A stretch of 64,000 nucleotides of DNA, from NCBI GenBank assembly GCA_965203805.1, contig OZ241917.1, forward strand, positions 1,824,001-1,888,000, read 5' to 3'. A program made the position numbers and the translations under genes. Positions 9,322-64,000 of the stretch are shown here, in pieces (the stretch's first letter is position 1; every line of letters starts with the position of its first letter). The stretch is from Candidatus Latescibacterota bacterium. GTDB lineage: Bacteria > Latescibacterota > UBA2968 > GCA-2709665. The notes below the pieces were generated by a model. The model had not been told where the DNA came from. It made no database searches and saw only the letters and a list, made by a program, of their open reading frames with translations.

Positions 9322-9350
9322 ACCGTACCCCCGAATCTGGAGAACGATCC

Positions 9351-10907: not shown

Positions 10908-10935
10908 TCGTCGTACCCGTTGAAGCTCAACGGAA

Positions 10936-10968
10936 AGGCCCCGGACATGCAGATCCGGGGCCTGTTTC
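10936..10968. terminator. Terminator-like hairpin after korB
   Basis: aggccccgga/tccggggcct 10-bp stem between convergent genes. Confidence 0.6.
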
Positions 10969-11049
10969 TCATGGCATGTTCGGGTTCCAGTGGGACGACG
11001 ACGATTGTGAACCCGCCCCACACGGCGCACGGCGCCCGCCCCGCCAGCT

Positions 11050-11514: not shown

Positions 11515-11517
11515 GAT

Positions 11518-12255
11518 TCAATCTCCAGCCTGGACATCAAGCATCGTCTCCAATGCGACAAGATGCGCCCGGACGCGCACCTCCATCGCCAGCGCGGACG
11601 GCGTCTCGGACGTAATCAGACGATCGGTATACTTCTGATTGAACAGGACAATGGGCACACCTCCGCCCAGGCGCCGCTTCTCTACCTCTGGATTCGGAAA
11701 TATCACGCCGTTCAACGCAGTTTCGCCCTCAATTTCCGATTGTGTATTCAGCGGACAGACCCCGGACACCTGTTTCGTAATCGGGGGTCCTGCGGGCGCC
11801 AGTCCGCGCACCTGCTCGTAAAGATAATACCCCGGACTCTCCCAGTCTTCGTGCAGGTCCATTACCGCCGCAAACGTCCTCCCGCGAATAAACCGCTTTA
11901 AAAGGCCGATTTCCGGAACGTCGTCACGGAGAAATGCCCAGTTGATGTCCACGTCCTGCCCATTCAATCGGGTACTGTGAACATATCCGTAGGGATTCAA
12001 GCAGGGTATTACGAAAAACCGGAATTTATCCAGCCATTGCTCGCAGCCCGTCTCCATAAAAGCCAGAGCCCCCTCGGTTCCGGCGGGTTCGTCACCGTGG
12101 GTTCCGCCGTTGACGTAAACCGCGGGCAGCGACGGGTCCGAATCAGCGGATACACAATGGACAGGATTTCCGTCTATCCGGCCCAGTTCCTCGACACGGA
12201 GACCCTTGCACGAAAGCGCTTCGATGCGCTTAACGACTTCATTGTAGTCACGCAT
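11518..12255 (-). CDS. M14 zinc carboxypeptidase / AstE-AspA-like protein
   Basis: HGDEPAG, PCLNPYG, DIN, DLHE and ETP motifs. Confidence 0.85.
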   Translation of the reverse strand: MRDYNEVVKRIEALSCKGLRVEELGRIDGNPVHCVSADSDPSLPAVYVNGGTHGDEPAGTEGALAFMETGCEQWLDKFRFFVIPCLNPYGYVHSTRLNGQDVDINWAFLRDDVPEIGLLKRFIRGRTFAAVMDLHEDWESPGYYLYEQVRGLAPAGPPITKQVSGVCPLNTQSEIEGETALNGVIFPNPEVEKRRLGGGVPIVLFNQKYTDRLITSETPSALAMEVRVRAHLVALETMLDVQAGD

Positions 12256-12309
12256 CTGATCTTACCCTATCCCTGACTGCGGACACCAGCTTTCCGTTTG
12301 TTGCGCGTC

Positions 12310-17522: not shown

Positions 17523-17611
17523 GTTGCTCCCGACTACGGACGCGACACACAATGCCCGTCGCGGAATTTCGCGCGGGCGGTAACGATCACAATACGCCGG
17601 GCCCTTCGATG

Positions 17612-19834: not shown

Positions 19835-20029
19835 GGTCAATCTTTCCGGGAAGGTTCGCACTACCGGGTCACTCAGAAAATCTATCGAATATACTCCCTG
19901 CGCGCAAAGGATTTCTAGGCTTGCCGCACGAGCCGGGTCCCCGAGACCGGTAATCGGGACGCTTCGGCATTGACAACGCACGGGGGCAGGTTTATCTTTC
20001 CGACGGGTCATTCCTGAGAAGGATCCACT

Positions 20030-47199: not shown

Positions 47200-47254
47200 A
47201 TCCGTCCATTCTCAAGTCTAAAGCCAAATCGCAAGCGTTGGCGATCTGCGCCGG

Positions 47255-49804
47255 TCAATCGCCATCCGATCCGCCCGGAGCGCTCGGGGAAGTACGCCGC
47301 ACGAACCGTGGACCGATCAATACCGCCACGGCGGCCAGCAATAACATCACGTCGACAATCAGCAGGGAGAATCTCAGCGGCGACAGCCTGGGCTCCAGTA
47401 CGATCCGGCTCTCACCAGGACCGAGTTTCAGCGCCACAAAGTGACCGGCTGTCGTATACGCCCGCGCGTCGCGTCCGTTCACGGTAACCCGCTGGTAGGG
47501 ATAGGCCGTGTATGCCAGCCGCGCAAAACAGGCCGCGCTGGAATGTACGACCAGTTCGACCCGCTGGTTCCATACCCGATGGGCGAGAACCTCCACCCGA
47601 GGCGATGTACCCAGGTCTTCCGCCGCGTTTGCGTCGGCGAGAAGAATCTGCCTGCACGTTCGGTTCCGGATATCGACGTCCATCGCCTGCAGCAGCTTCA
47701 CGAAATCGCCGAGTGCACGGGTCTGCATCCTGCGCGCTTCACGCTCATCGACGTCCGAGCCGGACCGGGCACGCGCCATGTCCAGCTCCCGGACGGGATA
47801 GGACCATCCCGAAATCTTCGACGACACAACAACAGGACTGGCTTCAGGGAATTCCCTGTGGAAAATCCGGTCCTGCTCCGAATCGGAGTACAGCAGGTGG
47901 CGGGTGTTCATGAGGAAAAGTCCGACGCGGATCATGTCGACCCCCGGCATTTCATTCAGGTCTGCATTCTCTTCCAGGCGCTGCAGTGAAAGGTGAAGCA
48001 CATCCTGGAAACGCCGGACAAAGGCAGGTACCGACAGCGGGTACTGCGTGAATGTATCCAAAGGTGTCGCGAGGCCGGTCTGAAGTGCCAGCCAGGGTAT
48101 GATGAAGTGGTAATAGATCTTATTCGTCGTATGGAACAGCCGGTGACCGGGAAGCTGCCCGTCTCCATAGGCTGCAAGCTCTTCCCGGAACTGTTTGTAA
48201 ACGGGACGATGCTGCAAGGGCAGCGGCTTCACAAGCGGCCAGGCATTCGGGTCCCGTCGCAGGTCCTGCAAGGCACGCGGACCGATATTCGACGCCGCAC
48301 CAGGGTCCCGGTACGGCTGTTGAAAGGTGGTTGGCCCCAGGTCCGCCAGGATCACCACGAGAATCGCCACGAAGACCCCGACGGGGCGTTTCCGTCCTGA
48401 AGCGCGCACGGAGGTAAACAACCCAACGAGCACGGCGACGAAGAACACCACGAACAGCAGGTACCGGGAGGCGTTCATCGCCTGCACCACCCCCAGGGAC
48501 TTGAGTACGGGCCATCGGTACCCGAAAACCAGCAACAGCGAACCGGCCAGGCAAAGGCCAACCGGAAGTCCGGCAGCGCGCACTCCCAAGCGTTCGCTCC
48601 GGATAATCCGTACCAGCGCCCACAACGCAATCGCGACCAGGCTTATCCCGAGATACCCGCCGTACCAGTGTTCCTGGGCCTGAAACAGCCGGAACCGGTA
48701 ATTGGACCAGAACAACAGATGCCGCCAGGAGGGCGCCGGGAATTCGGACATGTAAAACCCGGCATGAAGTCCCGTCAATCCCCGTTCCAGGTACATTGGT
48801 ACCGTCAAATAAGCCCCCAGCAACACGCCTCCCCCGAAAAGCAGCAGACCGTGTCGAATCGAGAACGGCGTGTCTTCGCGACGGGTCATTCGGCACCTGG
48901 CAAATGCATACACCCCAAGAAACGCCGTCGCCCAGAAGCCGTAACCCGGATGGGTAACATGCAGACAGCCCAGTGCAAGGCCGCCGCCGACGCCCTGGGC
49001 CAGCCGGTTTGGATGATTTCGCAGTCCCTCCCAGAAGTAGAACGGCAATGGCAGCAGGGCATAGAACAGCGAGAGCGGCAACCTGCCCATAATGAGGACC
49101 TGCTGCGTATGCCAGAAACTCAACACGTACGCAAGCCCCGCCGCGAAACCGGCCGGGCGCGACCCGGTCAGCCGCTGGACGAAGAGGTACGCTGCGAGCC
49201 CGGACAGGGCGTGGGCGGCCCCGAGCACGAACTTGATCGACGAAAACGGCGCCTGGAAAACCAGATTCACCAGCCCGACCAGGTAGTAAAACAGGAAACC
49301 GTAAAACTGCAGGTAGGGCGTGCCGTTACAGAAGTAGTGGGTCCAGATGGGGACCTCACCCTGCGCCATTGACGTTGCCGCCAGCCAGGCGTAGGTCACA
49401 TGCAGATAGGTGTCGGCGCCATGGGCGAATTCCCCATCGGCAAAATAAAAGCGAACCAGAATCAGACTCCCCGCAACGAGGAGCAGGACCGTTCGCTTTT
49501 CGCTTACGAAAACATGGTCGAAAAAAACCGAGAGCCGCCGCTTGCGCAGCTCCAGGAAAACCAGCAGCGATCCCACCGTAACGATAAGAAACAGCAGCGA
49601 GACATCTATCGCGTTGAACTTCACGAACCGCGAAACGACAGCGAGAAAACCCTGAAGACTCTGATACCTCAGGCCCGGTCGTAGAACACCGAATTTATCC
49701 AGTGTCACGTACTGGAAGATAATCAGCAGCCCTGCCAGCAACGCCAGCAGGGCCGACACGTCCACGGGCCATCCGGTGTTTTTGCGTCCCTCAGGCCGTT
49801 TCAA
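47255..49804 (-). CDS. YfhO-like / PTPS-related membrane glycosyltransferase-like protein
   Basis: D...H, P.W..Y..NG.P.LQFY, Y.G and C-terminal Y.AYP...VTVNG......F..L.L.PG...I.L plus a final TM helix. Confidence 0.7.
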   Translation of the reverse strand: MKRPEGRKNTGWPVDVSALLALLAGLLIIFQYVTLDKFGVLRPGLRYQSLQGFLAVVSRFVKFNAIDVSLLFLIVTVGSLLVFLELRKRRLSVFFDHVFVSEKRTVLLLVAGSLILVRFYFADGEFAHGADTYLHVTYAWLAATSMAQGEVPIWTHYFCNGTPYLQFYGFLFYYLVGLVNLVFQAPFSSIKFVLGAAHALSGLAAYLFVQRLTGSRPAGFAAGLAYVLSFWHTQQVLIMGRLPLSLFYALLPLPFYFWEGLRNHPNRLAQGVGGGLALGCLHVTHPGYGFWATAFLGVYAFARCRMTRREDTPFSIRHGLLLFGGGVLLGAYLTVPMYLERGLTGLHAGFYMSEFPAPSWRHLLFWSNYRFRLFQAQEHWYGGYLGISLVAIALWALVRIIRSERLGVRAAGLPVGLCLAGSLLLVFGYRWPVLKSLGVVQAMNASRYLLFVVFFVAVLVGLFTSVRASGRKRPVGVFVAILVVILADLGPTTFQQPYRDPGAASNIGPRALQDLRRDPNAWPLVKPLPLQHRPVYKQFREELAAYGDGQLPGHRLFHTTNKIYYHFIIPWLALQTGLATPLDTFTQYPLSVPAFVRRFQDVLHLSLQRLEENADLNEMPGVDMIRVGLFLMNTRHLLYSDSEQDRIFHREFPEASPVVVSSKISGWSYPVRELDMARARSGSDVDEREARRMQTRALGDFVKLLQAMDVDIRNRTCRQILLADANAAEDLGTSPRVEVLAHRVWNQRVELVVHSSAACFARLAYTAYPYQRVTVNGRDARAYTTAGHFVALKLGPGESRIVLEPRLSPLRFSLLIVDVMLLLAAVAVLIGPRFVRRTSPSAPGGSDGD

Positions 49805-49876: not shown

Positions 49877-50515
49877 CTATTCGAAAGATATCCCAACTCG
49901 AGCAGGGAAGAGTTGCGTGCTTCCCCGCTCTCCTGTTGTAAAACCGACCTCAAACCGCCCTTCGACAAAGAGGTGTACCCGGTCCGTAAGCCGAATGTCG
50001 ATGCCGGCGCCGGCGTTTATCGCAAACCCGGTCCCGGATTGCCCGTCGACATGAATCTCAACGCCGCCAATTTCGGTACCCTGTATATCAGCTTCCGAAT
50101 ACGACAGCAACCCCAATCCGGCAACCGCATAGGGCACCGCCCTGACATCCAGGTCGTCCGAATCAATCGTCTTGGTGTATTTCATACTGGCGAAGGCACT
50201 GAAGAGGTGTTTCTGCCCGCCGCTGGTGCCAATCAAGACCTCGAGCGCTTCGTTCTCCGCCTTGAATTTTCCCTCATCCAAAGAGAAACGAGCGTATCCC
50301 AGACGGCCCTGGACGGCCAGGCTGGGGTGAACGAAATACTCCGCTCCCACACCCACGCCGATGCCGGGATACCAAAATTCCGAGACGGAAATCGATGCGG
50401 GAGCGGCGATTCCCGCCGTAACGAAATAGACCGGCTTCTGCTGCGCTTCCGCGTCGCCCGCCATCCCGCCGGACAACAATTGTACTGCGACAAAAACAGG
50501 CAACACTCTCATCAT
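49877..50515 (-). CDS. Small outer-membrane beta-barrel (OmpA/OmpW-like) protein
   Basis: Signal peptide ending AEA-Q, PYAVAGLG, N.GAG and C-terminal RVGISF. Confidence 0.82.
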   Translation of the reverse strand: MMRVLPVFVAVQLLSGGMAGDAEAQQKPVYFVTAGIAAPASISVSEFWYPGIGVGVGAEYFVHPSLAVQGRLGYARFSLDEGKFKAENEALEVLIGTSGGQKHLFSAFASMKYTKTIDSDDLDVRAVPYAVAGLGLLSYSEADIQGTEIGGVEIHVDGQSGTGFAINAGAGIDIRLTDRVHLFVEGRFEVGFTTGERGSTQLFPARVGISFE

Positions 50516-50553
50516 AGAAGTCCTCCTTGTTTCGGTAGTTGTCCGCCTGCCGC

Positions 50554-51888
50554 CTAACCGCTTTCCTGCAGCCTCCGCCATCCCTGGAGGACGGACGGGA
50601 TCATCTGAACGGGCTGCCCGGCCTTGCAAAAGACCGCCCACAGCACGTCCCACACCTGCGGTTGCCACTGGCACAGATCGATCCAGTCCGCACACGGCGT
50701 GCTGTCCCCTTCCTTCCGGTCCACGCGTCCGCCGATGACCGGATCATCCAGCGACCCGTTCCACATCTGATCCAGCAGGGTATGCGCGAACCGCCTCATA
50801 TCGGCGTTGTTGAATACCACGCCGCGCCGGCAGGCATCGACGGCAAACCCGATATCGATCCGCCCGTGGCTGGTATCTTCAATGGCGCTGTGCCCGTGGG
50901 CGCCGGCCTCGTTCCAGTCCCAATAATACCAGGTATACGCCCTGCCCGTTTTCCAAAGATGCCGCTTGAAATTCCTCGCCATCCGCTGCGCACGATCCGC
51001 AAACAGCGGTTTCCGCGATACGCTCTGAAGCGACAGGTACGCCCGGGCCAGCGAGAGATACTGATTGTGCGGCATAATCCGGTTCGGAAACCGTTCCGTC
51101 ATCCAGGGAGAAAACCGGTACCCGCCGGACGCGGGCGATGAATCCACCCAGTCCCGTTCGTGCTTGTCGGCGATCTGCTTCCCGATAAAACGCAGGTACG
51201 CTCTCGCGCTGTCTCCGAATTCCGCCTTCAAGTCCGCATCCTTCAAGGCGTGTTCGACAAAGCGGCTCACCGGATGCAGAAACATCCCCTGGTGGACGAT
51301 ATACTCCAGCGGCTCGCCCGCGAAAACCTGGACCCAGAACCGATCTCCGGCGCGCGCCGCGCCCTGGATGCTGATCTTGAACGGCGCGAAACCGTCCAGC
51401 GTCGATCCCGGCCGGAACCGGCCGCCGGCCAACACCCGCCGCGTTCCGTATTCCTGCACGGCGTACCTTCGTCCCGGGAGAATCTCCACCACGCGAAGCG
51501 TATCCTGCGCCATGTCCCCGCCCCGGATCACCCACACCCGTTCCTCCTCGGGCGTGATGCAGGCCGTACCCCGGTTGTGCATCGACCCCGTTCTCACCAG
51601 CGCCACGGAATAGGTCGGCGTAACCCACGTCTCATAACCGTCCGCAAAGTGGTCCTGCCCTGTGGCAATCATCCTGTCGAAATGGTCCACGATCCTCTCC
51701 AGCCACCCCGCATCCCCTGTTGATTCGTAGAGCTTTACGTACGCATCCAGGAATCCGCTTTCGCCCCAGCCGAGGCTCCCGGAATCCGGGTTATCGGACT
51801 GGCCCTTGCCCTGGTTGTGCGATCGGTCATAGGCGGCGTATCGCTCGACCAGTTCGTCCCGATCAAATGGCGCTGCGCACCCGCTCAT
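50554..51888 (-). CDS. Hypothetical protein, possible (alpha/alpha)6-barrel sugar-active enzyme with a beta insert
   Basis: LYE.TGD..WL, P.NQ, W.YW and ED.SH motifs; GGAGG RBS. Confidence 0.65.
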   Translation of the reverse strand: MSGCAAPFDRDELVERYAAYDRSHNQGKGQSDNPDSGSLGWGESGFLDAYVKLYESTGDAGWLERIVDHFDRMIATGQDHFADGYETWVTPTYSVALVRTGSMHNRGTACITPEEERVWVIRGGDMAQDTLRVVEILPGRRYAVQEYGTRRVLAGGRFRPGSTLDGFAPFKISIQGAARAGDRFWVQVFAGEPLEYIVHQGMFLHPVSRFVEHALKDADLKAEFGDSARAYLRFIGKQIADKHERDWVDSSPASGGYRFSPWMTERFPNRIMPHNQYLSLARAYLSLQSVSRKPLFADRAQRMARNFKRHLWKTGRAYTWYYWDWNEAGAHGHSAIEDTSHGRIDIGFAVDACRRGVVFNNADMRRFAHTLLDQMWNGSLDDPVIGGRVDRKEGDSTPCADWIDLCQWQPQVWDVLWAVFCKAGQPVQMIPSVLQGWRRLQESG

Positions 51889-51911
51889 AACAAACCTCCA
51901 GCCTTTCGGAC

Positions 51912-51947
51912 AGAAGAAAAACCCGCCAGCCGCCTTCGGCCGCCGGG
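51912..51947 (-). terminator. Terminator/attenuator hairpin directly upstream of the 51888 RBS
   Basis: cccggcggccgaaggcggctggcggg followed by tttttcttct. Confidence 0.55.
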
Positions 51948-51972
51948 CCCGTCTATTGATAAACACAAGCAG

Positions 51973-52142: not shown

Positions 52143-55100
52143 CTACTGAACGTAGAAACCGGTCTGTCTGTTCGAAGTCAAACCGCTGTTAAGATCGGTG
52201 ACGTCGATTTCGAGGATATACTGCCCCGGCCTGGTCGACTGCAGATCCAGCTCCATGTAAATTTCTTCCGACTCCGAGTTTCCGATCTGCTCGTAGCCCA
52301 CCGCAAGTTCCTGTTTTCTGCCGGTGAATACGCGCACCAACTGGGAGATAACCCCACTGGCCGAGCGCCCCTGGACGCCCTTGGGCCGAATGGTATACGC
52401 CACCTTGTACCGGGTCTGTCCGAATGCATCTTTTTTCAGGCGGTAAATTTCATAGTAGACAAAGACGCCCTGGTCCCGTCCGAAGGTGCGGGTGGGAATC
52501 GGAATGACTCGGAGACCGCCCTTTCTGAATTTCCCAGGTTCATCGGACTCGACAACCGAATGGGCCAATTGCAGCTCGCTCAGCTGCAGGAAGGTCCTGT
52601 CGTAGTTGTCAATCACGACTTCCTGCCGGTACCGGCCCTGCCGTCCGGACAATCTGTCCTTGACCTGCACCTCCATCCGGTAGGTGCCGGGTGGTACGCC
52701 CAGATCCACCAGATCGGGTACAAAGCCGCCGCGCGCGCCGGTCAGATCGCCGCCCCCGCTGAATTCCAGATTGCCCTGCCGGCGGTACACCGCCCCGTTG
52801 CGCGGGTTGTTCAACGCTACGGATCGCTGCAGAAACATCTCGGTTGCGTCCCGATCGGGCAGATACTTGCCTAATTTATAGGGCGCCCCGAAATAGACCT
52901 CCAGCAGCGACCCGAGGCCCCGATCATCTTCCCGGAAATTGGCCAGATCGTAATAGAATTCCAAGGGCAATTTTTCCTCAGGCGGCTTGTAGTAGTCCGG
53001 CGTTACCCGGGCCGCCTGATTGGCCACGGACCGCGGATTGAACTGGTTGAACCGCGCAAGCTGCTGCATGGGTATGCGCACGTCCATCGGCGGAGGGGCG
53101 TAATCGAACTCGCCTCGCATGTACTCGTCTGTAAATGTGATTTCGATACCGCCATTCACGTCGGTATAAACCCAGACTTCCCAGGGAACCATCGACGCGT
53201 CGTCCTGTGAAGATACGGCCTTGAATGCAAAATCGTTGGGTGACTCGCCCACCGCCAGAGCGCCTTCGTTCATCTGGACGTTTTCGAACCTGAGCAATTC
53301 CAGAGACGCATCCGAAACCTCGTTGTCCGCCGTAATGCCGGATTCAAAGGTGATCCCTGTCCGCTGGGCCTGGCTGCCCTGTACCACCCGTGAGGCTTCT
53401 GTGTTGCGCCCGGCAATACTGAGATCCTCCACCTGCCGGCCGGCGGCGAAGCCGTCGCCCAGATTCGCGCCGCCGCTGAGATTGGATTTCAGGCTGCGCA
53501 CCGCGTACACGGGCCCGCCCATGAACGTCATCTGGAGGGCAGCCTGCCCGTACATCTGCCGGGCAATGCGCTCACGGACCCGCTGTACCTTCAGGCTCTG
53601 GTTGTAATTCTTCATATCCGAGGTGGACCGGTAGTCGGGTTCCCCGAATCGAATATAGACCTCACCCCGCCGGTCCCACGGCTGCTTACCCGAAGAATAG
53701 GCCCCCAGCGCGTACCAGACCCGCCGGTAGTGTTCCAGCAGGCGTTCGTTGATCGCCGTGGTCAGGTCCGGGTCATGAGCCGTCCAGAACCGTTTGACCA
53801 GTTCGACGCGCGCCTGGCCGTCGGCCATGTCGTACGCACTGCGCTCCTCCGTAGACATCAGAAGTACAGGATCGCGGTACAGCGCCTGCTCTTCCGCCGT
53901 CGCCGCCTGCAGGTACTCCCTGAAATAACGGTCTGCCCATTCGAGCCGTCCCAGCCCCACGCACGCCTGCGCCAGCACGGCCATCACGCCCGTTTCGTCC
54001 GGATGTTGCCGGACATAGTCAGTCAGCAGGTCCACAATCCGTTCGTAGTTCCGGGACCGGAGGTACACCGCGGCCAGCCGCTGGCGGCCCTTGGGATCTT
54101 CGGGTTTGAGCGTCATGTATCGCGCGTAAAGCAGGGCCGCCCGCTCGAAATCCTCCTCATGCACCTCGTACCACTCTCCCAGAAGCAGATAGGCGGGCGC
54201 ATACGTAGGATCTATGTCGAGCACCTTCTCAATATCGTACCTCGCGTCGTGTTCCTTCAGCCTGCGCCTCAGTCTCGCGATATTGTAACGCGCTTCCAGG
54301 TAGTCGCGGTTGTATTGTAGAGCCTTCGTGTAGTACCGGATGGCGTCGTACCGGGCTTTGGGCCGCCCTTCGAACACCTGACCGAGTCCGTTGTACGCTT
54401 CCGCCAACCTGTGGTCCAGTCGAACCGCACGTTCGAAAGAACGCAGCGCGGCGTCCGGATTCTTCGACTTCAAATAGGCATAACCCAGCAGGCAATGCCC
54501 GCGTGCGGATTTCGGCGCCATCAGCGTGACCACCCTCAGAACAGGCACGGCCGCCTTCGCGTCGACGTCCAGCACTCGCGCACCCACGTCCAGCAACGAA
54601 TCCACCAGCGTCCGACCCGCCGCCCGGTCCATGACCTCGAAGCCGTCCCCGCGGGGAACCAGTTCCAGCAGCCGCCCGCGATGAAAGGGACTGATCACCA
54701 TCCCCTCTCCGTCAGCAGCCCCCGACCGGTAGAAATAACTGATCGGGCTCTTCTTTCGATCTTCGGGCGACCTGAACAACCGGTCGAGAATCCGCTCCTC
54801 CGATTCGTCCAGCCCCCCGGCCAGCGCCGAAGTCTTCAACGCCTGCAGGTTGGCGGGCCGTCTGCCGTCGTTGCGACGGCGGTATTCAATGATCATATCC
54901 CCGATCGCGGACAGGTTCTCCCTGCCGACCCATCGGGCCCCCTGGTCGCCCGCCATCCGCGACCTGCCCGCCAGCAGCTTCGCGTATGCCATGGCGGGCT
55001 TGGAATAGAGAAGGTGATCTCGAGCCAATGATTCAAACTGCTGAGCCGCATCGCGATAAAAAAGCTGCGCGTGGCGGAATTCCCACTGACGGAGCGCACC

Positions 55101-55601
55101 GTACGCCAGTTTTGCCGTCATCATCGCCTTCTCTACGCCCGCGAGCGAACGGTTGGGCCCGTTGCGCGGCCCCCCGTTCTGCGCGGAAACCCACTCGACG
55201 TCCAGGCGTTCGAGTTCAAATTCCCCCGGACGCCGCACAACCGTGCCGTTTACCATCACCTCCCAGACCTGGCTCTCCACCATCGGCACCGCCGCCTGCC
55301 CCATCCCGGAGAGACGATAGTCCCGTAGCGGACGATCCTTGTAGAACACCCGCCGGCCGTCCGCGGACCAGCCCAACTGTCCCGGCGGGCCGGGAAATGC
55401 GCCCAGTCTGCGTTCGGTTCCAGCTGCATCCGCGGACCAGATCTCGGTCAGTGCCGCCTGCCCGTTTTCGTAGGCAGTCGTCCAGATCCGGCGGTTGTCG
55501 GACTCCGCCTGGACCGGCGATGCGATTCCGGCCGTGAACCAGCATGCGGTGAAAACACGCAATGCAATTGGACTGAATTTCGTCTTTCCTGCGCCCGACA
55601 C
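52143..55601 (-). CDS. Large exported TPR + GWxTD-domain protein
   Basis: Signal peptide ending VQA-E, TPRs, FW..HDPD.TT..NERL.EHYRRV and WDRRGEVYIRFG.PD; GGAGG upstream of GTG 55601. Confidence 0.85.
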   Translation of the reverse strand: MSGAGKTKFSPIALRVFTACWFTAGIASPVQAESDNRRIWTTAYENGQAALTEIWSADAAGTERRLGAFPGPPGQLGWSADGRRVFYKDRPLRDYRLSGMGQAAVPMVESQVWEVMVNGTVVRRPGEFELERLDVEWVSAQNGGPRNGPNRSLAGVEKAMMTAKLAYGALRQWEFRHAQLFYRDAAQQFESLARDHLLYSKPAMAYAKLLAGRSRMAGDQGARWVGRENLSAIGDMIIEYRRRNDGRRPANLQALKTSALAGGLDESEERILDRLFRSPEDRKKSPISYFYRSGAADGEGMVISPFHRGRLLELVPRGDGFEVMDRAAGRTLVDSLLDVGARVLDVDAKAAVPVLRVVTLMAPKSARGHCLLGYAYLKSKNPDAALRSFERAVRLDHRLAEAYNGLGQVFEGRPKARYDAIRYYTKALQYNRDYLEARYNIARLRRRLKEHDARYDIEKVLDIDPTYAPAYLLLGEWYEVHEEDFERAALLYARYMTLKPEDPKGRQRLAAVYLRSRNYERIVDLLTDYVRQHPDETGVMAVLAQACVGLGRLEWADRYFREYLQAATAEEQALYRDPVLLMSTEERSAYDMADGQARVELVKRFWTAHDPDLTTAINERLLEHYRRVWYALGAYSSGKQPWDRRGEVYIRFGEPDYRSTSDMKNYNQSLKVQRVRERIARQMYGQAALQMTFMGGPVYAVRSLKSNLSGGANLGDGFAAGRQVEDLSIAGRNTEASRVVQGSQAQRTGITFESGITADNEVSDASLELLRFENVQMNEGALAVGESPNDFAFKAVSSQDDASMVPWEVWVYTDVNGGIEITFTDEYMRGEFDYAPPPMDVRIPMQQLARFNQFNPRSVANQAARVTPDYYKPPEEKLPLEFYYDLANFREDDRGLGSLLEVYFGAPYKLGKYLPDRDATEMFLQRSVALNNPRNGAVYRRQGNLEFSGGGDLTGARGGFVPDLVDLGVPPGTYRMEVQVKDRLSGRQGRYRQEVVIDNYDRTFLQLSELQLAHSVVESDEPGKFRKGGLRVIPIPTRTFGRDQGVFVYYEIYRLKKDAFGQTRYKVAYTIRPKGVQGRSASGVISQLVRVFTGRKQELAVGYEQIGNSESEEIYMELDLQSTRPGQYILEIDVTDLNSGLTSNRQTGFYVQ

Positions 55602-55644
55602 GAACGGCTCCTCCCTAACCTCAATTCGAAACACGATCGCCGGT

Positions 55645-55674
55645 AAATTTACCACAAAGAGCACAAAAGGCACA
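55645..55674. repeat. 30-bp direct repeat, copy 1 (9-nt internal period, CACAAA)
   Basis: aaatttaccacaaagagcacaaaaggcaca; 29/30 identical to 57937-57966. Confidence 0.85.
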
Positions 55675-55850
55675 AGAACACAATAGGGAGTCGACCCCGA
55701 AAACCGGATAATGACATGAAAAAAACACTGCAATTACTGCTGTACGGGACAGAAATCTACCTTGAATAGGTTTGTGCGGATATCACTATAGAATAAGGAA
55801 TATGGACGAAAAGTCAAAGCTGATTCTGTTCCTGATGCGGTGATTCGCCT

Positions 55851-57824
55851 TTACTCCGCCAGCAATCGAATGCGGCGACGGGCCTCGGACAACGCCTTCG
55901 GATCGCCCCGCCATTGCTTCAGAAACGCGTCGTAGGCCGAGACCGCGTCCTCCGGCTTTCCCAGGTTTTGAAGCACCGCGCCCAGATTGAACAACGCTTT
56001 CGCGTCACCCAGCGCCGCCGACCTGCGATAAGCCTCCGCGGCCTCCACCGGTTTGCCCGTCTTCTCCAGGGACACTCCGAGGTTGAAGTGAGCCTCCCTA
56101 TCCTTCGGCAGCAGGACAACTGCCTGCCTGAATCCTTCGGCGGCTGTCGCCGTTTTGCCGGCCCGCATGGCAGTCACACCCAGATTCATCCAGGCCTCCG
56201 CATATTGAGGATTGAGGTCCACCGCTTTCCGGTATGCCGCTACCGCCTGTTCAAAGGACCCCTTCACGCCGTACGCATTGCCCAGGTTGTTGAAAGTCAT
56301 GGCTTCTTCCCTGATGGACAGCGCCCGTTGAAAGGCAAGAACTGCATGATCCATCAGTCCGCGTTCGGCAAGCACCTGGCCCACTGCCTGGTGCATCTTG
56401 GCGCTCGCCGGATATGCGCTTGCAGCGCTGGAAAACAGACTGTATTCATCCTTCCAATCTTCGTTTCGCACGACCGTGCGCGCGGAATACCCAATGCATA
56501 CGAGACCCGCCGCGATAACAACGCCGAATCCAAACCTCCTGAACAGCCGCTCCGCGCCAATCCCCGCAAGCGCAAACACGCCGAGTGCCGGTATGTACAG
56601 AAACCGCTCCTGGACCATTGAGTTCAGCAACACCACAGTCTGCGACACCCCGGCATAGGGCACCCAGAAAAGCGCCCCGCAAAAAAACAGCCGCGGCCAT
56701 CTCGCCAGCGATCGCACCCACAACCCCAGCCCCGCCAGCGCCAGCGCCAGGCCCGCGATCACGCCCGGTTCCAGTAGCGAAGCGGCAACCGGAATTGCAT
56801 TGTACGAGTAATCAACGGAAAGCCGCCAAGGCAAGACCAGGAGCGAAATGTAGTGCCAGAAGATCCTCCCGGCGGTCAGGATCCGCGTGTCGAACGAAGC
56901 GCCATACAGCGGATTCACAAGCTCCGTCATCCCGCCGGGTGAAAAGCCGAGTCCTGCCGCGGCGCCTCGCACGACCAGACAGACCGCGAATACACCCGCG
57001 AAGCCCAGCCACCACGGCCATCTTGCCCAGCAGACATCCAGAATGCATCGGAGAAAATCCCTCCCATCAAGTTCGCCTGCCGACCAGGCCAGACGCACTG
57101 TCGACGGTCCTCGCCGCGCATTCCGTCCATTACCCTTGTCCGATAAAATCCGGTTCTCTGGATCCGTCATTCCCGCCGCCAGGTCATATACGACGACGAG
57201 GCCCAGCAATGCGAGCGCGCTCTCCTTGCTGAGCAATCCACAGAAGAATGCAACGAGCGCCATCAGATAGGCCGTGCGGGAACCCGAACTCTGCACATAC
57301 AACAACATACCTGCAAGAAGAAAGCCGCCGGCGAGCAGGTCGGACCGGCCAAAGGTCACACCCGCCGCCACTTCCGAATGGATCGGATGCACCGCAAACA
57401 GCAGGCCGGCAAAACCCGCCGCAAAACGGCTCAGGCCCGCCCGCCTGCACAGCAGCCACGCCAGCAGGCTGCAACTTACGTGAAGAAGCACGTTGGTCAG
57501 ATGAAACCGAAACGGGCTGATGCCTCCAAGCGCGTCCAGCAGAAACGTCAGCACCGTCAGGGGCCGGTATTGCCCGGTTTCGTTTCCGGGATAACCCGCC
57601 CAGTAGTGGGTCGTGAAAACGCTTTTGAAATCCAGCCGTTCCACGATCCAGCTTCGTACGATCAGAAACTGGTCGTCGTAAACCAGCCCGTTGGCCAGCG
57701 CGTTGGCATAGACCACCATCGCCGCGATGCCCACGAGAACCGGCCACGCCCATGTGTGCTTTACGTCCGTGCTTACGGGCGTATCCGCAGACGCCCTGCG
57801 TTTCCGGTCATTGCGTTTCGCCAT
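55851..57824 (-). CDS. TMTC-like (DUF1736) GT-C membrane protein with TPRs, putative protein O-glycosyltransferase
   Basis: Y.NAL.NG.VYDD, YRPL, FH..N..LH, LFAVHPIH.E.V, GR..LL, LLSKE, LS.DY, ERFLY.P, RN..W and C-terminal TPRs. Confidence 0.85.
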   Translation of the reverse strand: MAKRNDRKRRASADTPVSTDVKHTWAWPVLVGIAAMVVYANALANGLVYDDQFLIVRSWIVERLDFKSVFTTHYWAGYPGNETGQYRPLTVLTFLLDALGGISPFRFHLTNVLLHVSCSLLAWLLCRRAGLSRFAAGFAGLLFAVHPIHSEVAAGVTFGRSDLLAGGFLLAGMLLYVQSSGSRTAYLMALVAFFCGLLSKESALALLGLVVVYDLAAGMTDPENRILSDKGNGRNARRGPSTVRLAWSAGELDGRDFLRCILDVCWARWPWWLGFAGVFAVCLVVRGAAAGLGFSPGGMTELVNPLYGASFDTRILTAGRIFWHYISLLVLPWRLSVDYSYNAIPVAASLLEPGVIAGLALALAGLGLWVRSLARWPRLFFCGALFWVPYAGVSQTVVLLNSMVQERFLYIPALGVFALAGIGAERLFRRFGFGVVIAAGLVCIGYSARTVVRNEDWKDEYSLFSSAASAYPASAKMHQAVGQVLAERGLMDHAVLAFQRALSIREEAMTFNNLGNAYGVKGSFEQAVAAYRKAVDLNPQYAEAWMNLGVTAMRAGKTATAAEGFRQAVVLLPKDREAHFNLGVSLEKTGKPVEAAEAYRRSAALGDAKALFNLGAVLQNLGKPEDAVSAYDAFLKQWRGDPKALSEARRRIRLLAE

Positions 57825-57852
57825 GGTTGTGGGGTCAATACCTCCGTGGGGC

Positions 57853-57876
57853 GGGCCCCACAAGGGGTGCCCCTAC
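57853..57876 (-). repeat. REP-like element of the GTAG class
   Basis: GTAG followed by the imperfect palindrome GGGCACCCCTTGTGGGGCCC. Confidence 0.5.
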
Positions 57877-58166: not shown

Positions 58167-58217
58167 TAATAAAAGAAACGGGCGGCAACCGGGCTCAGAG
58201 TCCCGGGCGCCGCCCGT
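58167..58217 (-). terminator. Rho-independent terminator after the PorV-family gene
   Basis: acgggcggc..ccggg/cccgg..gccgcccgt stem followed by a T-rich run on the minus strand. Confidence 0.65.
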
Positions 58218-58287: not shown

Positions 58288-59280
58288 TTAGAACGTACCT
58301 CCGACAGAAACGCGGATCGGCGGATCGAACATAACGACGCCGTCGTTCTGCTGCAGGAGCGAAACAGCTACGTCCGCCGTGATGGTACGGCCCCCGAAGG
58401 TCTGCTTCAGGCCAGCACCCAGGGAAATACCCTCAAGGTCGTAATTCCACTTCCAACCCGCGCGCAACGCGAGCGCATTCTGCAGCCACAACTCGGCGCC
58501 GAAATGCCAGCGCTGCTCGAAGTCCACGAAGAACGCGCTCTCCACCGAGGCGGTGAGGTAGGACGGATCGCCCTTTTCGCCGTAGACTTCGGCAGCCACG
58601 CCGATATTGTAGACGAGCGGCAGCAGGTATGCGCGATCGCCCGACTTGCGGTCAGGTCCGAAATTCTTGAACGCCATCGCGATACGGAGGCTTCTGAAGC
58701 CCGTGTAGAAGAAGCTGCCCACGTCCACGGTGAAGCCCGTTGTCTTCACCGTGTACAGCTTCTCCTGGACGTAGTTCGCCTTGGCGCTGAACGAGAACTT
58801 GTCGGTGAACTTGATCGCATACAGCAAGCCGACGGAGATATTGTGTACGACCACGTCCTGCCCGGTTCCGTTGGGCTGATAGATCGTGGTTTCCTTCGAT
58901 GGCTTCGGGTTGTGCGAAACCACCGAAAGGCCCAGCACCTCACCTCTGGCCGAACGCGTGTTCCAGACGGCCGTGGCCGAGTAGAGCTGGGTGTCGAGCA
59001 GGAAACGCGTCCAGTTCGCCTGGTAGGCCACGCGTTCCACGTGTACCAGCCCCGCGCCGTTCCAGAAGATCGCGTTGATGTCGTCGGCGACCGCGGTAAA
59101 CGCGTCGCCCATACCCACGGCGCGGGCGCCCTGGCCGATCTTCAGGAACTGCATCCCGGAGATATTGACTTTCTTGACGCCGTACTCACCGGTCACCCCG
59201 CCCCACTTCACGGCCAAAGCCGGTGAAGCGGCAAGCAGCAGGGCCAAGACCGACGCAATGATTAGCATGCTTCTTTTCAC
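58288..59280 (-). CDS. PorV/PorQ-family (FadL-like) outer-membrane beta-barrel
   Basis: Signal peptide; FLKIG.GARA.GMG.AFTAVADD..AIFWN.AGL signature; G.E.W....LALRAG; terminal Phe. Confidence 0.88.
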   Translation of the reverse strand: MKRSMLIIASVLALLLAASPALAVKWGGVTGEYGVKKVNISGMQFLKIGQGARAVGMGDAFTAVADDINAIFWNGAGLVHVERVAYQANWTRFLLDTQLYSATAVWNTRSARGEVLGLSVVSHNPKPSKETTIYQPNGTGQDVVVHNISVGLLYAIKFTDKFSFSAKANYVQEKLYTVKTTGFTVDVGSFFYTGFRSLRIAMAFKNFGPDRKSGDRAYLLPLVYNIGVAAEVYGEKGDPSYLTASVESAFFVDFEQRWHFGAELWLQNALALRAGWKWNYDLEGISLGAGLKQTFGGRTITADVAVSLLQQNDGVVMFDPPIRVSVGGTF

Positions 59281-59305
59281 GTCATTTCCTCCTTGTTTGA
59301 GCCCG

Positions 59306-61777
59306 CTACTTGATCAGCACGAAGCTGCCTCTTCGGGTCTCTCCGCCGGATACGACAACGAAATAGTACAGACCGGTCTGCACTTCGCCGGCGATATTGA
59401 ACGTGATCTGCCGAAACTCGGTTTCACCCTTGGTAAGCGGGGTCCGGTCCGTGGTTTCCACGCGGTCGCCGGAGGCCGAGTAAATGTGAATGATCGCGTC
59501 CGAGGTAAGGCCCACGATGCGAAGGTTGCGGGAGTTGGGATACTGGTGCACGCCGTCCACGTAGTACGGGTTCGGCACGATGAGCACCTCTTCCGGGAGG
59601 CTGGACAACAGGGCCTGGAAGGGTTTGCGGTTGTCGCCGTCGTACGTCCTTGCCGTCGACGGCCCCCAGCCGCTTTCATACCCCCTCCGGATATTGGCCT
59701 GCACACGCTCACTGGGGATGTCGTCGATGGTCATCCCGCTGTTCCACGTGTACGACTCCACGCCCCTGGCATACGGGCGGGCGGAGTAGAAGTAGGAAAA
59801 GCCGGCCGTGGTTTCCAGGTCCTCGTATTCATAGACGCCGTCGGCATTGATGCCCCATTCGCCCCGGGGCAGTCCCGCCGGATTGGTGGAAGATCCGCTC
59901 GAACCGTTTTCGATGATCCCGTACAGCTCCCACGGACCCCATGAAAACCACTCGGACTTGTACAGCCTGACCCCGAGGATATCCTGCTCGCCCGTATACG
60001 GGTTCACAGCGGACTCGGATTCCCTGCCCCACCGGATCAATTGCTTGGCCCTGGTGGAAGAGGTAAGGTTGTCGGGCGAAATGTACGCCTCGGTGGGCGA
60101 GGTGGGCACCTGGTAGTTGTTGTCATACACCCAATGGGCCAACTTCAGATTCTCCAGTGCGGCCTTCTCGCCGTCCGTCTTTATCTTCTGGATCTTGTTC
60201 TCGGGGCTGTCGCTGGACCGGTCCCACTTGATCAGCCCGATGTCCTGCTCGTTGGCGGGAATCGGCGCGAGCAAGGAAGGGTGCCCCGCTCCCCAGGAGA
60301 ACACGAGCTTCACGGTTTCATCCACGCCCACGTTGTAGGGCCCGTAGACGGTCATGTCGTGGAACACCTTCCGCGTGGAAATGTCGCCCTCGTCCGGATT
60401 GGCCTGAAAACCCGTCGTTGTTATGACGCTGGCGAGTTGCGCGGCGCTGTGCGTGGTATAGGTGGGGTCGTCGAAGTCACCCGTGGAACGCGCCAGCCAC
60501 CACTGGAACGAACGCGGCTGCATGTCTTCCCCGGGCTGCACGTATTTTCCGCGGTCGGCTTCGTTGAACGAGAACTTCCCCGCGTCATCGGCGTAGGCGA
60601 GCGGCGCCATGAAATAGGTGCTTGGCGCTCTGGGTTGGCCTTCCGTCTGCAGAATATTGTAGTTGGAAGGCACGATCGCCTTGAAGAACGGATCGCCCGT
60701 GTCGTCGTGCGAAGAAAACGGGTTGTCGGAGTCCCTGCGGATAACCGCGCGCATATCCTCGCCCACGAACGCGCCGTTCTGCGAGAATGCATTCGGATAG
60801 CCGTTGGCTTCCGTAAACCACAACGTATCGTCCATGCCTCGGGCGTTGGACGCGTAGAAGTTCCAACCGAACTCCTCGAGAATGCCCATTGCCGTCATGG
60901 CCGCCACGTTCTTGAAGGCGATATAGAGATTATTGATGGGTCCCGGCGCTTCACCCACGCCGTCGCCATCGAAGTCGCCGATGTTCTTGAAGGTGAGGTC
61001 CACGATGTAGAAGTCGTCGAAATCCGGGTTGGACCAGCTGTAGACACGCCGCTGCATCAGCAAACCGTTCTGCTTGTCGATCCACTGGGCGATGATCGTC
61101 TCTTCCGGAATGGTCACGTCCACCAGGTTGTGCGCGCCCAGGTTGTAGTTGGCGATGTGGGCCGGCGATGTGCTAACCGGGTCCCAGTTGGCGCCGTAGA
61201 TGCTGCCGTGATCGTCTTTGGTGACCCCCGGCCAGTAATTGGAGAGGGCACCCTCATCATCCAGTTCTCCGGGAGAAATAGCGCTGTTCGGCGTCTCGGC
61301 GAGCTCCTGCAGCGGGTTGGGCTGCCCCCAGCTTTCCTCGGGATTGCCCACGGGATCGTAGGGGAACGCCTGGTTGTGTTCCACGATCTGCAGGTTCTCA
61401 CGAGGTCCGGTCACCGTGACGGTACCGCGGTCGGCGTTCAGGATCCAGATGCCCTCGCCGCCCGAGACCTTGTAGTCGTTGTACATCTGCGACTTCTGGT
61501 TGGACGTGAACTGGGAGAGCACCGCGCCGAACGAACCCGGCCCGTTGCCGTTCCACGGATAGGCGTTGCGCCTGTAGCCGCGCCCCCACTCCTGGTTGCC
61601 GCCCATGCCGCCTATATTGTTATAGCTGTTGGATATAAGCGACCGCAGGTTGTACCTGCTGGAAATATTGTCGGGAGTGGCCTGCGCATCGACCGGGACT
61701 GGCTGAAATACAACCGCAACCAGCGCAAGGCAGGCGACTGCAACCAGCCCCTTAACAATGAAATTCAATCGTTTCAT
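59306..61777 (-). CDS. Large exported protein with a T9SS-CTD/FlgD-Ig-like C-terminal domain
   Basis: Signal peptide ending VDA-Q; FN3-like Y.D.....GF.Y.YS; C-terminal V.IVPNPY...I.IYS.SG..V...TGLY.FVV......G.FVLIK. Confidence 0.82.
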   Translation of the reverse strand: MKRLNFIVKGLVAVACLALVAVVFQPVPVDAQATPDNISSRYNLRSLISNSYNNIGGMGGNQEWGRGYRRNAYPWNGNGPGSFGAVLSQFTSNQKSQMYNDYKVSGGEGIWILNADRGTVTVTGPRENLQIVEHNQAFPYDPVGNPEESWGQPNPLQELAETPNSAISPGELDDEGALSNYWPGVTKDDHGSIYGANWDPVSTSPAHIANYNLGAHNLVDVTIPEETIIAQWIDKQNGLLMQRRVYSWSNPDFDDFYIVDLTFKNIGDFDGDGVGEAPGPINNLYIAFKNVAAMTAMGILEEFGWNFYASNARGMDDTLWFTEANGYPNAFSQNGAFVGEDMRAVIRRDSDNPFSSHDDTGDPFFKAIVPSNYNILQTEGQPRAPSTYFMAPLAYADDAGKFSFNEADRGKYVQPGEDMQPRSFQWWLARSTGDFDDPTYTTHSAAQLASVITTTGFQANPDEGDISTRKVFHDMTVYGPYNVGVDETVKLVFSWGAGHPSLLAPIPANEQDIGLIKWDRSSDSPENKIQKIKTDGEKAALENLKLAHWVYDNNYQVPTSPTEAYISPDNLTSSTRAKQLIRWGRESESAVNPYTGEQDILGVRLYKSEWFSWGPWELYGIIENGSSGSSTNPAGLPRGEWGINADGVYEYEDLETTAGFSYFYSARPYARGVESYTWNSGMTIDDIPSERVQANIRRGYESGWGPSTARTYDGDNRKPFQALLSSLPEEVLIVPNPYYVDGVHQYPNSRNLRIVGLTSDAIIHIYSASGDRVETTDRTPLTKGETEFRQITFNIAGEVQTGLYYFVVVSGGETRRGSFVLIK

Positions 61778-61816
61778 ATCCTTCTCTGCCTCCATTCGAA
61801 AGCACTGCGGAACAGA

Positions 61817-61846
61817 CGCGCCGGAAGCGAAACTGCTTCCGGCGCG
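61817..61846. other. 12-bp perfect hairpin between the TBDR and cargo genes (possible mRNA-stabilising or processing stem)
   Basis: cgcgccggaagc/gcttccggcgcg with no U-run. Confidence 0.5.
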
Positions 61847-61854
61847 CCATTTCC

Positions 61855-64000
61855 TTACCAGTTAACGCGCAGCCCGAACTGGGCAAGACGCGGCGAATGC
61901 GCGTAAGACCGATCCCGGCTGTCGCCGTAATTCAGATAGTTCTTGTCGTCCGGGGTCGGCCCGTCCAACCCGATATACGTCCAGAGGTTTCTGTTCGACG
62001 GGCTGGTGCGGTCCTTCTGGTTGAAAACGTTGCGGATGTCGGCGAAGAGCGTGGGTTGAACCCTGCCGGTCACGTTGAACGTCTTTTCAACGGCCAGGTC
62101 GGTCCGGGAATCCAGCGCGAGGTCGCGGTAGTACCGGTTGCCGCCTTCAGGCGGGGCGTAGTTGAAGATACCGCCCGTCTGGATGCGGGAGGTGACGTTC
62201 AGCCGGAGATTCTTGAGAACCGTACCCACAAAGGAATGGCCGAACTCGAAATCATCCGGGAACGACGCCAGGAGCGAGAAACTTCCGAAATTCCGGCGGT
62301 CCCCGCTCTTCGGGCGGAAGAACAGCGTGGTATAGCTGCCCGAGTTGATCTTGACCGAGCAGTTCTGGCCGCAGTTCCCGAGGGCGGGATTGTCGACCGG
62401 CCGGAGGCCGTCCCACACGCCCGTGCCCAATTGGCCGCCCTTCGCCCGCGCATTGTCGTGGAAGTTCTGCCCCTGCTGCGCGTATTTGACGAGGTCGTCG
62501 CCCGTCAGCCGGCGAGGCGCCTCGCTGCCGTCCGGAAGCGCATCCCAGTAAATCCAGAAATTGGGAACCGTAATGCCGCGGTCCGTAAACGCGTTGGTTG
62601 TGGAAAGATGGACCACCGTTGCCGAGTCCATATATACGTTGCGGATCACGTTGCCCAGCTTGCCCGTGGTGACCTGCGACCACTGGTAGTTGTAGGAAAC
62701 GTTGAATGAGAAGTTGTGCGAGAAGGACTTGCGCATGGACAATTCCACGCCGCGGGTGTCACCGTACGCGCCGTTGTCCAGGGTCCGCGAATAGGGAATC
62801 CAGAAGTCCCTGGGACCGACCCACGTTTCGTTGGGATACGACGTGAAGTGGTCCACCTCGCTCTTGTAATACGCCGTTAAGGTGGCCGTGTAGTCGCTCA
62901 CGAAGTTCCAGTCGGCGCCCACCTCGAAGGCCGTGGTCTTGGCGGGTTGCAGCAGGTGCAGCCCGTTCTGGCCCGAATAGGTGGTGCGGAAGTTGTTCAT
63001 CCGCTCGGTGGCGTCGATCCGTCCGTTCTCGTTCACGTCGCGGTCGCCGGCGTCGCCGGAGGTCCAGTAGTCCTCACCGAAGTAATACCAGAGGTCGGCC
63101 CACTGGAGGAACACGCCCGTGGAGAACCGCATCTGCGACCGCTCCGTGATGGGGTGCGAGACGCCGATCCGCGGGCTGAACTTCACGTGCCAGGGCGCGT
63201 CCGTGACCCACAGGGAGCCTTCCTGGTACGCCCAGTCGCGTGCGCGCGTATAATAGCGGAACATAGAGCTTCCGCGGTATGCGCCGAAGGTCAACTGGCG
63301 CGAGTTCGGGTTGAACGTATCCAGGCGGACGCCCAGGTTGACGATCATCCCCTGGAACTCCATCTTGTCCTGGAGGTAGGCGTTCAGGAAGAAGGGCTTG
63401 ACCTTTTCGCCAATCTGGCCTTCGTCCATGATCACCCGCAGGTTCCGCGCGGCCGGGGTTGTGTCGTACCGCAGAATCATCGTGATGGCGCTGGTCTGGT
63501 ACTCGACCCCCGCCTTCATGAAGTTACCCTTGGTGATCTGCGATGACAGGTCGACCTTGGCCCCGATGCGCTGCCGGTCGTACTGGCCGTATCTGGCGGC
63601 CTGCCGGCCGATGCTGAACCATCCCGCCTGGTCCCGGAAAATCTCTCCGGTCACGTCATGCGTGCCGCTGAGGGTATCCATCTTCGAGCGGGAATGCGAA
63701 ACCCGCACTTCGTAGAAGGTCCTCGGGGAAAGCGTATGCGTAAATACCGCGTACTGCAATTCTTCCCGGAGGTCGTGCAGTCCGGCCGCCGACCACTTCT
63801 CGGGCAGGAACAGGTCGCGGCCCGTTCCGCGCCTCATCGCGCCGCCGCCGGTGCCGTGACGCCCGCCGAAGAGGTCAGGATTGCCGTTCGAATACCAGTC
63901 CCAACCCAGATACATCCCGCCGACTTTCAACTTGAGATTGGCGGTGGGTTTGATGGTGATGCTCCCGGAAACGTTGATATTGCCCGGGTCGTCCTGGAAG
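61855..64000 (-). CDS. TonB-dependent receptor beta-barrel (5' part outside the window)
   Basis: AYLQDKMEF.GMIVNLGVRLD, SPRIGVSHPITE, T.AFEVG, YGDTRGVE, N.FN and PR..QFGLRVNW end. Confidence 0.9.
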   Translation of the reverse strand, partial: FQDDPGNINVSGSITIKPTANLKLKVGGMYLGWDWYSNGNPDLFGGRHGTGGGAMRRGTGRDLFLPEKWSAAGLHDLREELQYAVFTHTLSPRTFYEVRVSHSRSKMDTLSGTHDVTGEIFRDQAGWFSIGRQAARYGQYDRQRIGAKVDLSSQITKGNFMKAGVEYQTSAITMILRYDTTPAARNLRVIMDEGQIGEKVKPFFLNAYLQDKMEFQGMIVNLGVRLDTFNPNSRQLTFGAYRGSSMFRYYTRARDWAYQEGSLWVTDAPWHVKFSPRIGVSHPITERSQMRFSTGVFLQWADLWYYFGEDYWTSGDAGDRDVNENGRIDATERMNNFRTTYSGQNGLHLLQPAKTTAFEVGADWNFVSDYTATLTAYYKSEVDHFTSYPNETWVGPRDFWIPYSRTLDNGAYGDTRGVELSMRKSFSHNFSFNVSYNYQWSQVTTGKLGNVIRNVYMDSATVVHLSTTNAFTDRGITVPNFWIYWDALPDGSEAPRRLTGDDLVKYAQQGQNFHDNARAKGGQLGTGVWDGLRPVDNPALGNCGQNCSVKINSGSYTTLFFRPKSGDRRNFGSFSLLASFPDDFEFGHSFVGTVLKNLRLNVTSRIQTGGIFNYAPPEGGNRYYRDLALDSRTDLAVEKTFNVTGRVQPTLFADIRNVFNQKDRTSPSNRNLWTYIGLDGPTPDDKNYLNYGDSRDRSYAHSPRLAQFGLRVNW

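Follow-up and report, generated by a model that had tools for sequence, protein, structure and literature searches.

A conserved cassette of TonB-dependent transporter, CTD-bearing predicted surface protein and PorV-like barrel in Candidatus Latescibacterota: a candidate outer membrane uptake module

We analyzed 64,000 nucleotides (nt) of Candidatus (Ca.) Latescibacterota contig OZ241917.1 (positions 1,824,001 to 1,888,000; hereafter the window), one end of which carries a cassette of three genes encoding a TonB-dependent transporter (TBDT), a large exported protein (the cargo) and an outer membrane barrel of the PorV/PorQ family. All three lie on the minus strand, in the order TBDT, cargo, barrel: the TBDT gene is a fragment at 61855-63999 (714 amino acids [aa], open at the window edge), the cargo gene spans 59306-61795 (829 aa) or starts at an ATG at 61777, which is the start used by several homologues (823 aa), and the barrel gene occupies 58288-59280 (330 aa). 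The gaps between them are 59 or 77 nt (TBDT to cargo) and 25 nt (cargo to barrel). Because G+C content at third codon positions (GC3) is 0.81 to 0.85 in the three frames, we take these to be the coding frames, in agreement with an earlier prediction made from the DNA letters of the window (the original prediction), which had described three co-oriented genes with short gaps. An open reading frame of 621 aa on the opposite strand (60041-61906; GC3 of 0.56) was dismissed as a shadow frame on the same measure.

The original prediction also placed a terminator at 58167-58217, and this was borne out in part: folding of the minus strand revealed a terminator-like hairpin followed by a U-rich tract at this operon end (z of −2.5, with 7 of 200 shuffles as good), but the hairpin is absent from the terminator-scan output for the window. 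A second hairpin, without a U-tract, lies at the TBDT-cargo junction on the same strand (61817-61846; z of −6.4, with 0 of 200 shuffles as good) and may be an element of mRNA stability or stoichiometry. Stable folds occur at this junction in several other loci, and in other clades the gap is only ~20 nt.

The three-gene feature is real and strongly conserved. We surveyed its neighbourhood in one genome scan with an alignment of the close cargo family, to which the survey was restricted because two broader alignments were too divergent for a genome scan, and analyzed the best 80 of 86 loci, which represent 44 genomes. These are nearly all metagenome-assembled genomes of Ca. Latescibacterota or labelled Gemmatimonadota, with a few unclassified, and the loci reduce to ~18 independent lineages (~18 effective paired sequences). 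Neighbours were assigned with hidden Markov models (HMMs) built from the loci's own neighbours, family identity being checked on representatives. Since the cargo was the query, the figures give what accompanies the cargo and not the share of PorV genes that sit in cassettes. Directly upstream of the cargo gene, a TBDT gene was present at 79 of 79 testable loci; directly downstream, a PorV-family gene was present at 76 of 77. Conservation of the triplet elsewhere, which the original prediction had named as a check, was found at 75 of 76 testable loci, nearly all in Ca. Latescibacterota (four loci were untestable for the full triplet because of contig ends).

The cassette often has a fourth member: a gene for a small outer membrane protein (OMP) β-barrel of ~240 aa lies upstream of the TBDT gene in 67 of 72 testable loci. 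At the closely related locus L001 it is found at 5945-6664, a position that falls beyond the window edge, and at L036, L060 and L062 a GntR/FCD regulator stands in its place. The gene order of the triplet is also seen in the consecutive Ca. Handelsmanbacteria locus tags A3F84_25270, 25275 and 25280. At L050, a second cassette of TBDT, CTD (C-terminal domain) protein and PorV-family barrel directly follows the first (5316-12588); its CTD protein is 1067 aa long, divergent and only a weak match to the cargo profile, and the layout is therefore probably wider than one cargo family. Split or shortened frames, which are either sequencing errors or pseudogenes, were seen in the cargo genes of L046 and L078, the TBDT genes of L033 and L040 and the small OMP gene of L067.

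The TBDT fragment (61855..64000) represents the C-terminal two thirds of the protein and shares 98% identity with residues 364-1077 of the L001 TBDT, a locus whose DNA is 94% identical to that of the window. No Pfam or NCBIfam model matched the fragment, and a single-sequence search of the PDB gave no match; the full-length L001 relative (1077 aa) has CarboxypepD_reg and Plug domains, with Plug PF07715 above its cut-off. The structural model of this relative (pLDDT 91) comprises an N-terminal extension, a TonB-box-like motif, a plug and a barrel of 22 strands (counted from the DSSP string) with a loop 9 of 124 aa, and its best matches to solved TBDTs, Cir and BtuB, reach a Z of 28. In an alignment of 65 TBDTs, at least 95% retain residues E116, V119 and A121 of the motif that we liken to the TonB-box pattern. 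A DxDxNG motif is conserved in loop 7, and an NxGDxDGD motif at mature residues 234-242 of the cargo; both resemble calcium-binding loops. Judged by the plug and 22-strand barrel modelled for its 98%-identical relative, the first gene is a TonB-dependent transporter, as had been proposed, with import itself a predicted activity.

The second gene encodes a predicted surface partner (59306..61777; 823 aa from the ATG) with a Sec/SPI-type signal peptide and the C-terminal pattern PNPY...GLYYF...K, in keeping with the exported protein of ~820 aa ending in PNPY...GLY...K that had been described. The partner was also said to have no obvious lipobox, and this holds across the family: the query has none, and the few regular-expression matches (4 among 126 homologues, 1 among 76 locus cargos) were unconvincing on inspection. 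The model, from a 121-sequence alignment (pLDDT 90.9, pTM 0.93), is mainly β. The mature protein begins with a β-supersandwich region with loop insertions and linker helices (residues 1-525; 60110..61684), continues with an FN3-like domain with insertions (~526-695; 59600..60109; 3mpc FN3, E of 1.4e-6) and ends, in Lys, with a type IX secretion system (T9SS)-type CTD (~696-792; 59309..59599). A word search found 30 relatives, two of them named from Ca. Handelsmanbacteria, and a profile search found 2716 clusters (50% identity) at E ≤ 0.001, 150 of them listed; there were no cargo matches in plasmids. Neither Pfam nor NCBIfam, SusD families included, gave a match to the cargo at E ≤ 0.1, a single-sequence PDB search was empty, and no SusD chain was among the matches listed for the fold searches, which is not an exclusion. 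The cargo is an uncharacterized protein family.

The best structural matches of the N-terminal domain, 1lf6 (Z of 14.8, rmsd of 3.1, 242 residues aligned, chain 33-385, 8% identity) and 1ulv (Z of 14.5), cover the noncatalytic N-domain and linker of GH15/GH65/GH94 enzymes at identities of at most 10%. These top matches stop near chain residue 385, and no catalytic (α/α)6 barrel follows the supersandwich, which runs into the FN3-like domain and CTD. Mutarotases use the supersandwich as a catalytic fold, lyases and a GH174 fucanase are also among its weaker matches (3mwx, Z of 10.1; 9o3q, Z of 9.7; 9k1g, Z of 9.2), and at least 90% of 120 sequences share six acidic residues (E194, D223, D224, D285, D318 and D328), all of which would suit a surface enzyme of a new lyase, hydrolase or epimerase family, anchored by the PorV-like barrel next to the TBDT and making the fragments to be imported rather than serving as a lid. 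However, the closest matches are confined to noncatalytic parts, no enzyme family was recognized in Pfam or NCBIfam, part of the conserved acidic set forms a DxDGD-type motif, a possible calcium site, and every TBDT paralogue comes with the same cargo family irrespective of the flanking enzymes. We therefore regard an enzymatic cargo as unlikely.

At the other end of the protein, the original prediction had named folding of the C terminus as an Ig-like CTD as a check. In the model, the ~97-residue CTD is an Ig-like β-sandwich and matches those of PorZ (5m11; Z of 12.0, rmsd of 2.4, 91 aligned), PorU (6za2; Z of 10.2) and mirolase (8qb1; Z of 8.8, rmsd of 1.8), and the cargo profile matches residues 665-757 of PorZ 5m11 (E of 1e-4). 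The modelled CTD is thus closest to the uncleaved T9SS tails of PorZ and PorU. According to excerpts of the literature, cited here by PMC number, the CTDs of PorU and PorZ remain bound to PorV and PorQ (PMC10202324), and a C-terminal Lys is near-invariant in type-A CTDs (PMC10994853). K or R is the last residue in 122 of 126 full-length cargo homologues; 30 of 65 homologues match TIGR04183 weakly (E ≤ 0.05), and 27 of the 65 match the C-terminal stretch of the PorZ model. The type-B tail model TIGR04131 was absent from the matches listed for the query and the 65 homologues.

The window barrel passes the family cut-off of the PorV/PorQ model NF033709 (141 bits against 90; barrels from three other loci score 167 to 172 bits), which bears out the PorV signature originally assigned to it, and its profile matches Flavobacterium johnsoniae PorV (6h3i_F; E of 6e-19). 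It falls below the cut-offs of the PorV equivalog NF033710 (49.9 bits against 250) and the PorQ equivalog NF033711 (56.4 against 220), and it is unmatched by the PorP/SprF model TIGR03519, on which the L045 barrel scores 24 bits against 90.6. By sequence, the product of 58288-59280 is classed as a PorV/PorQ-family outer membrane barrel and putative cassette-specific paralogue. Type-B cargo genes cluster with PorP/SprF genes (PMC10202324), and cognate barrels anchor or route type-B cargo, whereas one PorV serves all type-A cargo (PMC9143113, PMC12618676). Type-B cargo with their own PorP-like barrels had been offered as the precedent for the cassette; this stands as regards one cognate barrel per cargo and fails as regards the kind of tail and barrel. 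The type-A-like, uncleaved pairs PorZ-PorQ and PorU-PorV are the closer precedent, because the tail matches PorZ and PorU and, in homologues and mostly weakly, TIGR04183, with TIGR04131 not among the matches listed.

More than one locus was found in 21 of the 44 genomes, with five the largest number; these are lower bounds. Each complete paralogous cassette has its own PorV paralogue; within a genome, the cargos of such cassettes are 28 to 57% identical and the PorV proteins 39 to 73%. In trees of 68 complete cassettes, the cargo has 29 well-supported splits, of which 27 are recovered for the TBDT (the other 2 conflict) and 24 for PorV, the latter with no strong conflicts. Furthermore, all three genes agreed on the best-hit paralogue in 969 of 1180 comparisons, which are not independent of each other, where chance would give ~515 per pair. 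The congruence of the trees implies that the cassette duplicates as a unit; binding does not follow from it. Such paralogue-specific co-inheritance with the cargo supports the dedicated, or cognate, PorV of the original prediction.

Divergence is fastest in the cargo N-domain (mean distance of 1.37) and the TBDT loops (1.45), as expected of substrate-facing parts, and slower in the TBDT core, PorV and CTD (0.82 to 0.92). A fast-diverging N-domain and an FN3-like domain might also be found in an adhesin or variable surface-recognition protein, with the TBDT a signalling protein or an incidental neighbour, and type-B cargo with cognate barrels are adhesins (PMC12618676). We consider this very improbable, as the TBDT is present at every testable locus and co-diverges with the cargo, and cargo homologues have a narrow length range and no repeat stalk.

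We propose that the small OMP barrel, TBDT, cargo and PorV-like barrel make up one outer membrane uptake module in which the surface partner is held by its dedicated PorV-like barrel, in the manner of PorZ and PorQ, and replaces a SusD lipoprotein, a reading that we favor by a small measure. The cargo, whose signal peptide is visible in the sequence, would be exported by Sec, and its CTD, to judge from the fold, would direct it across the outer membrane through a T9SS-type translocon. Homology and co-inheritance suggest that the CTD would then stay uncleaved on the co-encoded PorV paralogue, as PorZ does on PorQ. Held beside its own TBDT, the cargo could act as a lid or binding protein whose variable supersandwich captures substrate for TonB-driven import, standing in for the SusD lipoprotein with no lipid anchor of its own. 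What is imported is probably a fragment of a glycan or of another polymer and would differ between paralogues. The bolder proposal, a distinct class of lidded TonB importer in which three or four proteins form a stable complex and a T9SS-exported, CTD-tethered lid on its own PorV closes over the TBDT, is more tentative, and we rate its chances as somewhat short of even.

Several observations weigh against the proposed uptake module. No PorV gene was found at L034 within the ~1 kb available. The CTD of the query cargo matches no HMM, and TIGR04183 scores above its cut-off for only 3 of the 65 homologues. In complete genomes as of 2013, an older survey found complete T9SS in Bacteroidetes only (PMC4793230, in excerpt). 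Co-operonic inheritance also arises from co-regulation alone, and partial Mantel tests, of low power with 18 lineages, detected no specific covariation between cargo N-domain and TBDT loops (r of 0.14, p of 0.13) or between CTD and PorV (r of 0.08, p of 0.29); we gave no weight to the two of the six tests that were nominally significant (TBDT loops and PorV, p of 0.005; CTD and TBDT loops, p of 0.03). Sulfatases or carbohydrate-active enzymes (CAZymes) in the flanks (at most 10 kb per locus) of 21 of the 80 loci, and SSF or DUF6785 membrane proteins in those of 37, speak for the module, but all flank counts lack a genome-background control, and neither enzyme class was annotated in the flanks of the window's own clade (15 loci). 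Complex prediction with the C-terminal 472 residues of the TBDT (half the barrel) and the cargo N-domain gave no answer (score of 0.01, mark of 0.32) and is evidence neither way.

The lack of specific covariation would suit a PorV paralogue that is a dedicated shuttle only, the cargo being handed on, released or linked to lipopolysaccharide after CTD cleavage and the operon serving co-regulation. PorV shuttles type-A cargo in Bacteroidota (PMC10202324, PMC11969387), and cognate shuttles can send cargo to other sites (PMC12618676). However, a single recycled PorV is enough for all type-A cargo in Flavobacterium (PMC12618676), which makes a paralogue per cassette unnecessary for shuttling. Furthermore, the CTD is closest to uncleaved tails, and the single-unit cargo model (pTM 0.93) suggests a rigid protein and not a tail on a linker. 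We think it improbable that the barrel is a shuttle alone.

Among 214 clusters of flank proteins, of which partly overlapping sets of 74 and 79 representatives were scanned, the matches listed for these representatives and the window's open reading frames included no SprA, PorU or SusD; apparent PorK/GldK matches in the L032 and L042 flanks were discarded (90 and 80 bits against 350). PorF is a TBDT-like T9SS accessory protein. The TBDT-like barrel might energize, gate or assist export or display of the cargo and not import, in which case the whole cassette would be a secretion or display unit complete in itself. In its favor, the cassette is closed and self-similar, it has up to three barrels, and no sprA, porU or true porK was seen among the annotated flank representatives or the window frames scanned. 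T9SS genes are usually scattered (PMC4793230), and their absence from the flanks therefore says little. Against an export unit stand the TBDT model, that of an ordinary plugged 22-strand transporter with a SusC-like N-terminal extension, and the width of TBDT barrels, which are too narrow to pass a folded protein of ~90 kDa. LacI/GntR regulators in the flanks of 7 of 80 loci and catabolic enzymes beside several copies also argue against it, and we give it little credence.

The proposed uptake module most plausibly works like SusC/SusD (RagA/RagB). Shared features are a CarboxypepD_reg-extended TBDT followed directly by a large exported partner and many paralogous cassettes per genome, some beside sulfatases, CAZymes and regulators. 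The SusD fold is helical (TPR type), whereas the partner here is a non-lipoprotein of β-supersandwich, FN3-like domain and CTD; the cassette has two further barrels; and its TBDTs fell below the cut-off of the SusC/RagA model TIGR04056 in 4 of 4 scanned, with 62 to 84 bits against 368 and over an N-terminal stretch only. With PorZ-PorQ and PorU-PorV of the T9SS attachment complex, the cassette shares a CTD of this type next to a PorV/PorQ-family barrel and, as proposed, an uncleaved CTD kept on the cognate barrel; it differs in a cargo body unrelated to PorZ or PorU, a barrel under both equivalog cut-offs, and a pair that is present in multiple copies per genome and linked to a TBDT. Type-B pairs (SprB-SprF and PG1035-PorP) likewise have the barrel gene directly 3′ of the cargo gene and one cognate barrel each, but the cassette CTD is type-A-like and its barrel is not PorP/SprF, and known type-B cargo are either established or predicted adhesins, the excerpts making no mention of a TBDT. 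Thus, the cassette is a member neither of SusCD nor of the type-B/PorP pairs. BamG-BamH of the Bacteroidota β-barrel assembly machinery is a structural analogy for the proposed complex, in that a FadL-family barrel of 14 strands holds a surface protein next to a larger one (PMC12611786), but BamH is a lipoprotein that lacks a CTD, BamA is the partner barrel, and the complex serves OMP biogenesis.

We found no description of a TBDT-CTD-PorV cassette in the open-access literature searched (subscription journals were outside its scope), in line with the absence of any characterization known to the original prediction. It is undescribed in excerpts of PMC5317091, PMC11969387 and PMC13543919, the last without PorV or T9SS terms, and TonB and SusC go unmentioned in the excerpt of PMC12618676. 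The cassette thus appears to be an undescribed combination of parts from known families. In excerpts, Latescibacteria are predicted to degrade algal polysaccharides, with SusD and type IX unmentioned (PMC4454575); T9SS may exist in other Fibrobacteres-Chlorobi-Bacteroidetes (FCB) phyla (PMC11285876); and, among the FCB phyla listed, Chlorobiota alone lack SusCD and SprA (PMC12611786).

Polysaccharide utilization loci are usually found via SusC-SusD pairs. If the uptake module is real, uptake systems of uncultured FCB lineages have been overlooked under the annotations “hypothetical protein” and “PorV/PorQ family protein,” the several PorV paralogues per genome are explained, the PorZ-PorQ anchoring principle extends to nutrient transport, and a family of thousands of unannotated proteins gains a testable function. 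It would suggest a second route, without a lipid-anchored lid, to placing a capture protein over an importer. Should the lidded-importer class also hold, such importers would serve in place of SusCD in Latescibacterota, and possibly in other FCB phyla, with the T9SS as supplier of transporter lids.

Other neighbours recur around the cassette. Flanks contain SSF or DUF6785 membrane proteins at 37 of 80 loci; DUF6785/DUF6784 proteins, possibly inner membrane transporters, lie within 3.2 kb of the cassette at 22 of 80 (for example, L046:368-2356). GWxTD/TPR proteins occur in the flanks of 55 of 80 loci and in the window at 52143-55733 and 17612-20011; the term GWxTD did not occur in the open-access literature searched. 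Two stretches of the window (55851-57863 and 45013-49804) encode membrane proteins, possibly glycosyltransferases, that carry TMTC/DUF1736 and TPR or PTPS-related domains; close relatives show synteny for that at 55851-57863, on the downstream side of the cassette. A further gene for a small OMP β-barrel (49877-50695) bears a weak likeness to PorG (19 bits against 130), and a 470-aa protein with no Pfam or NCBIfam match, encoded at 50554-51966, is conserved in 11 related loci. Finally, selB and selA, encoding selenocysteine machinery, are found at 14209-17552.

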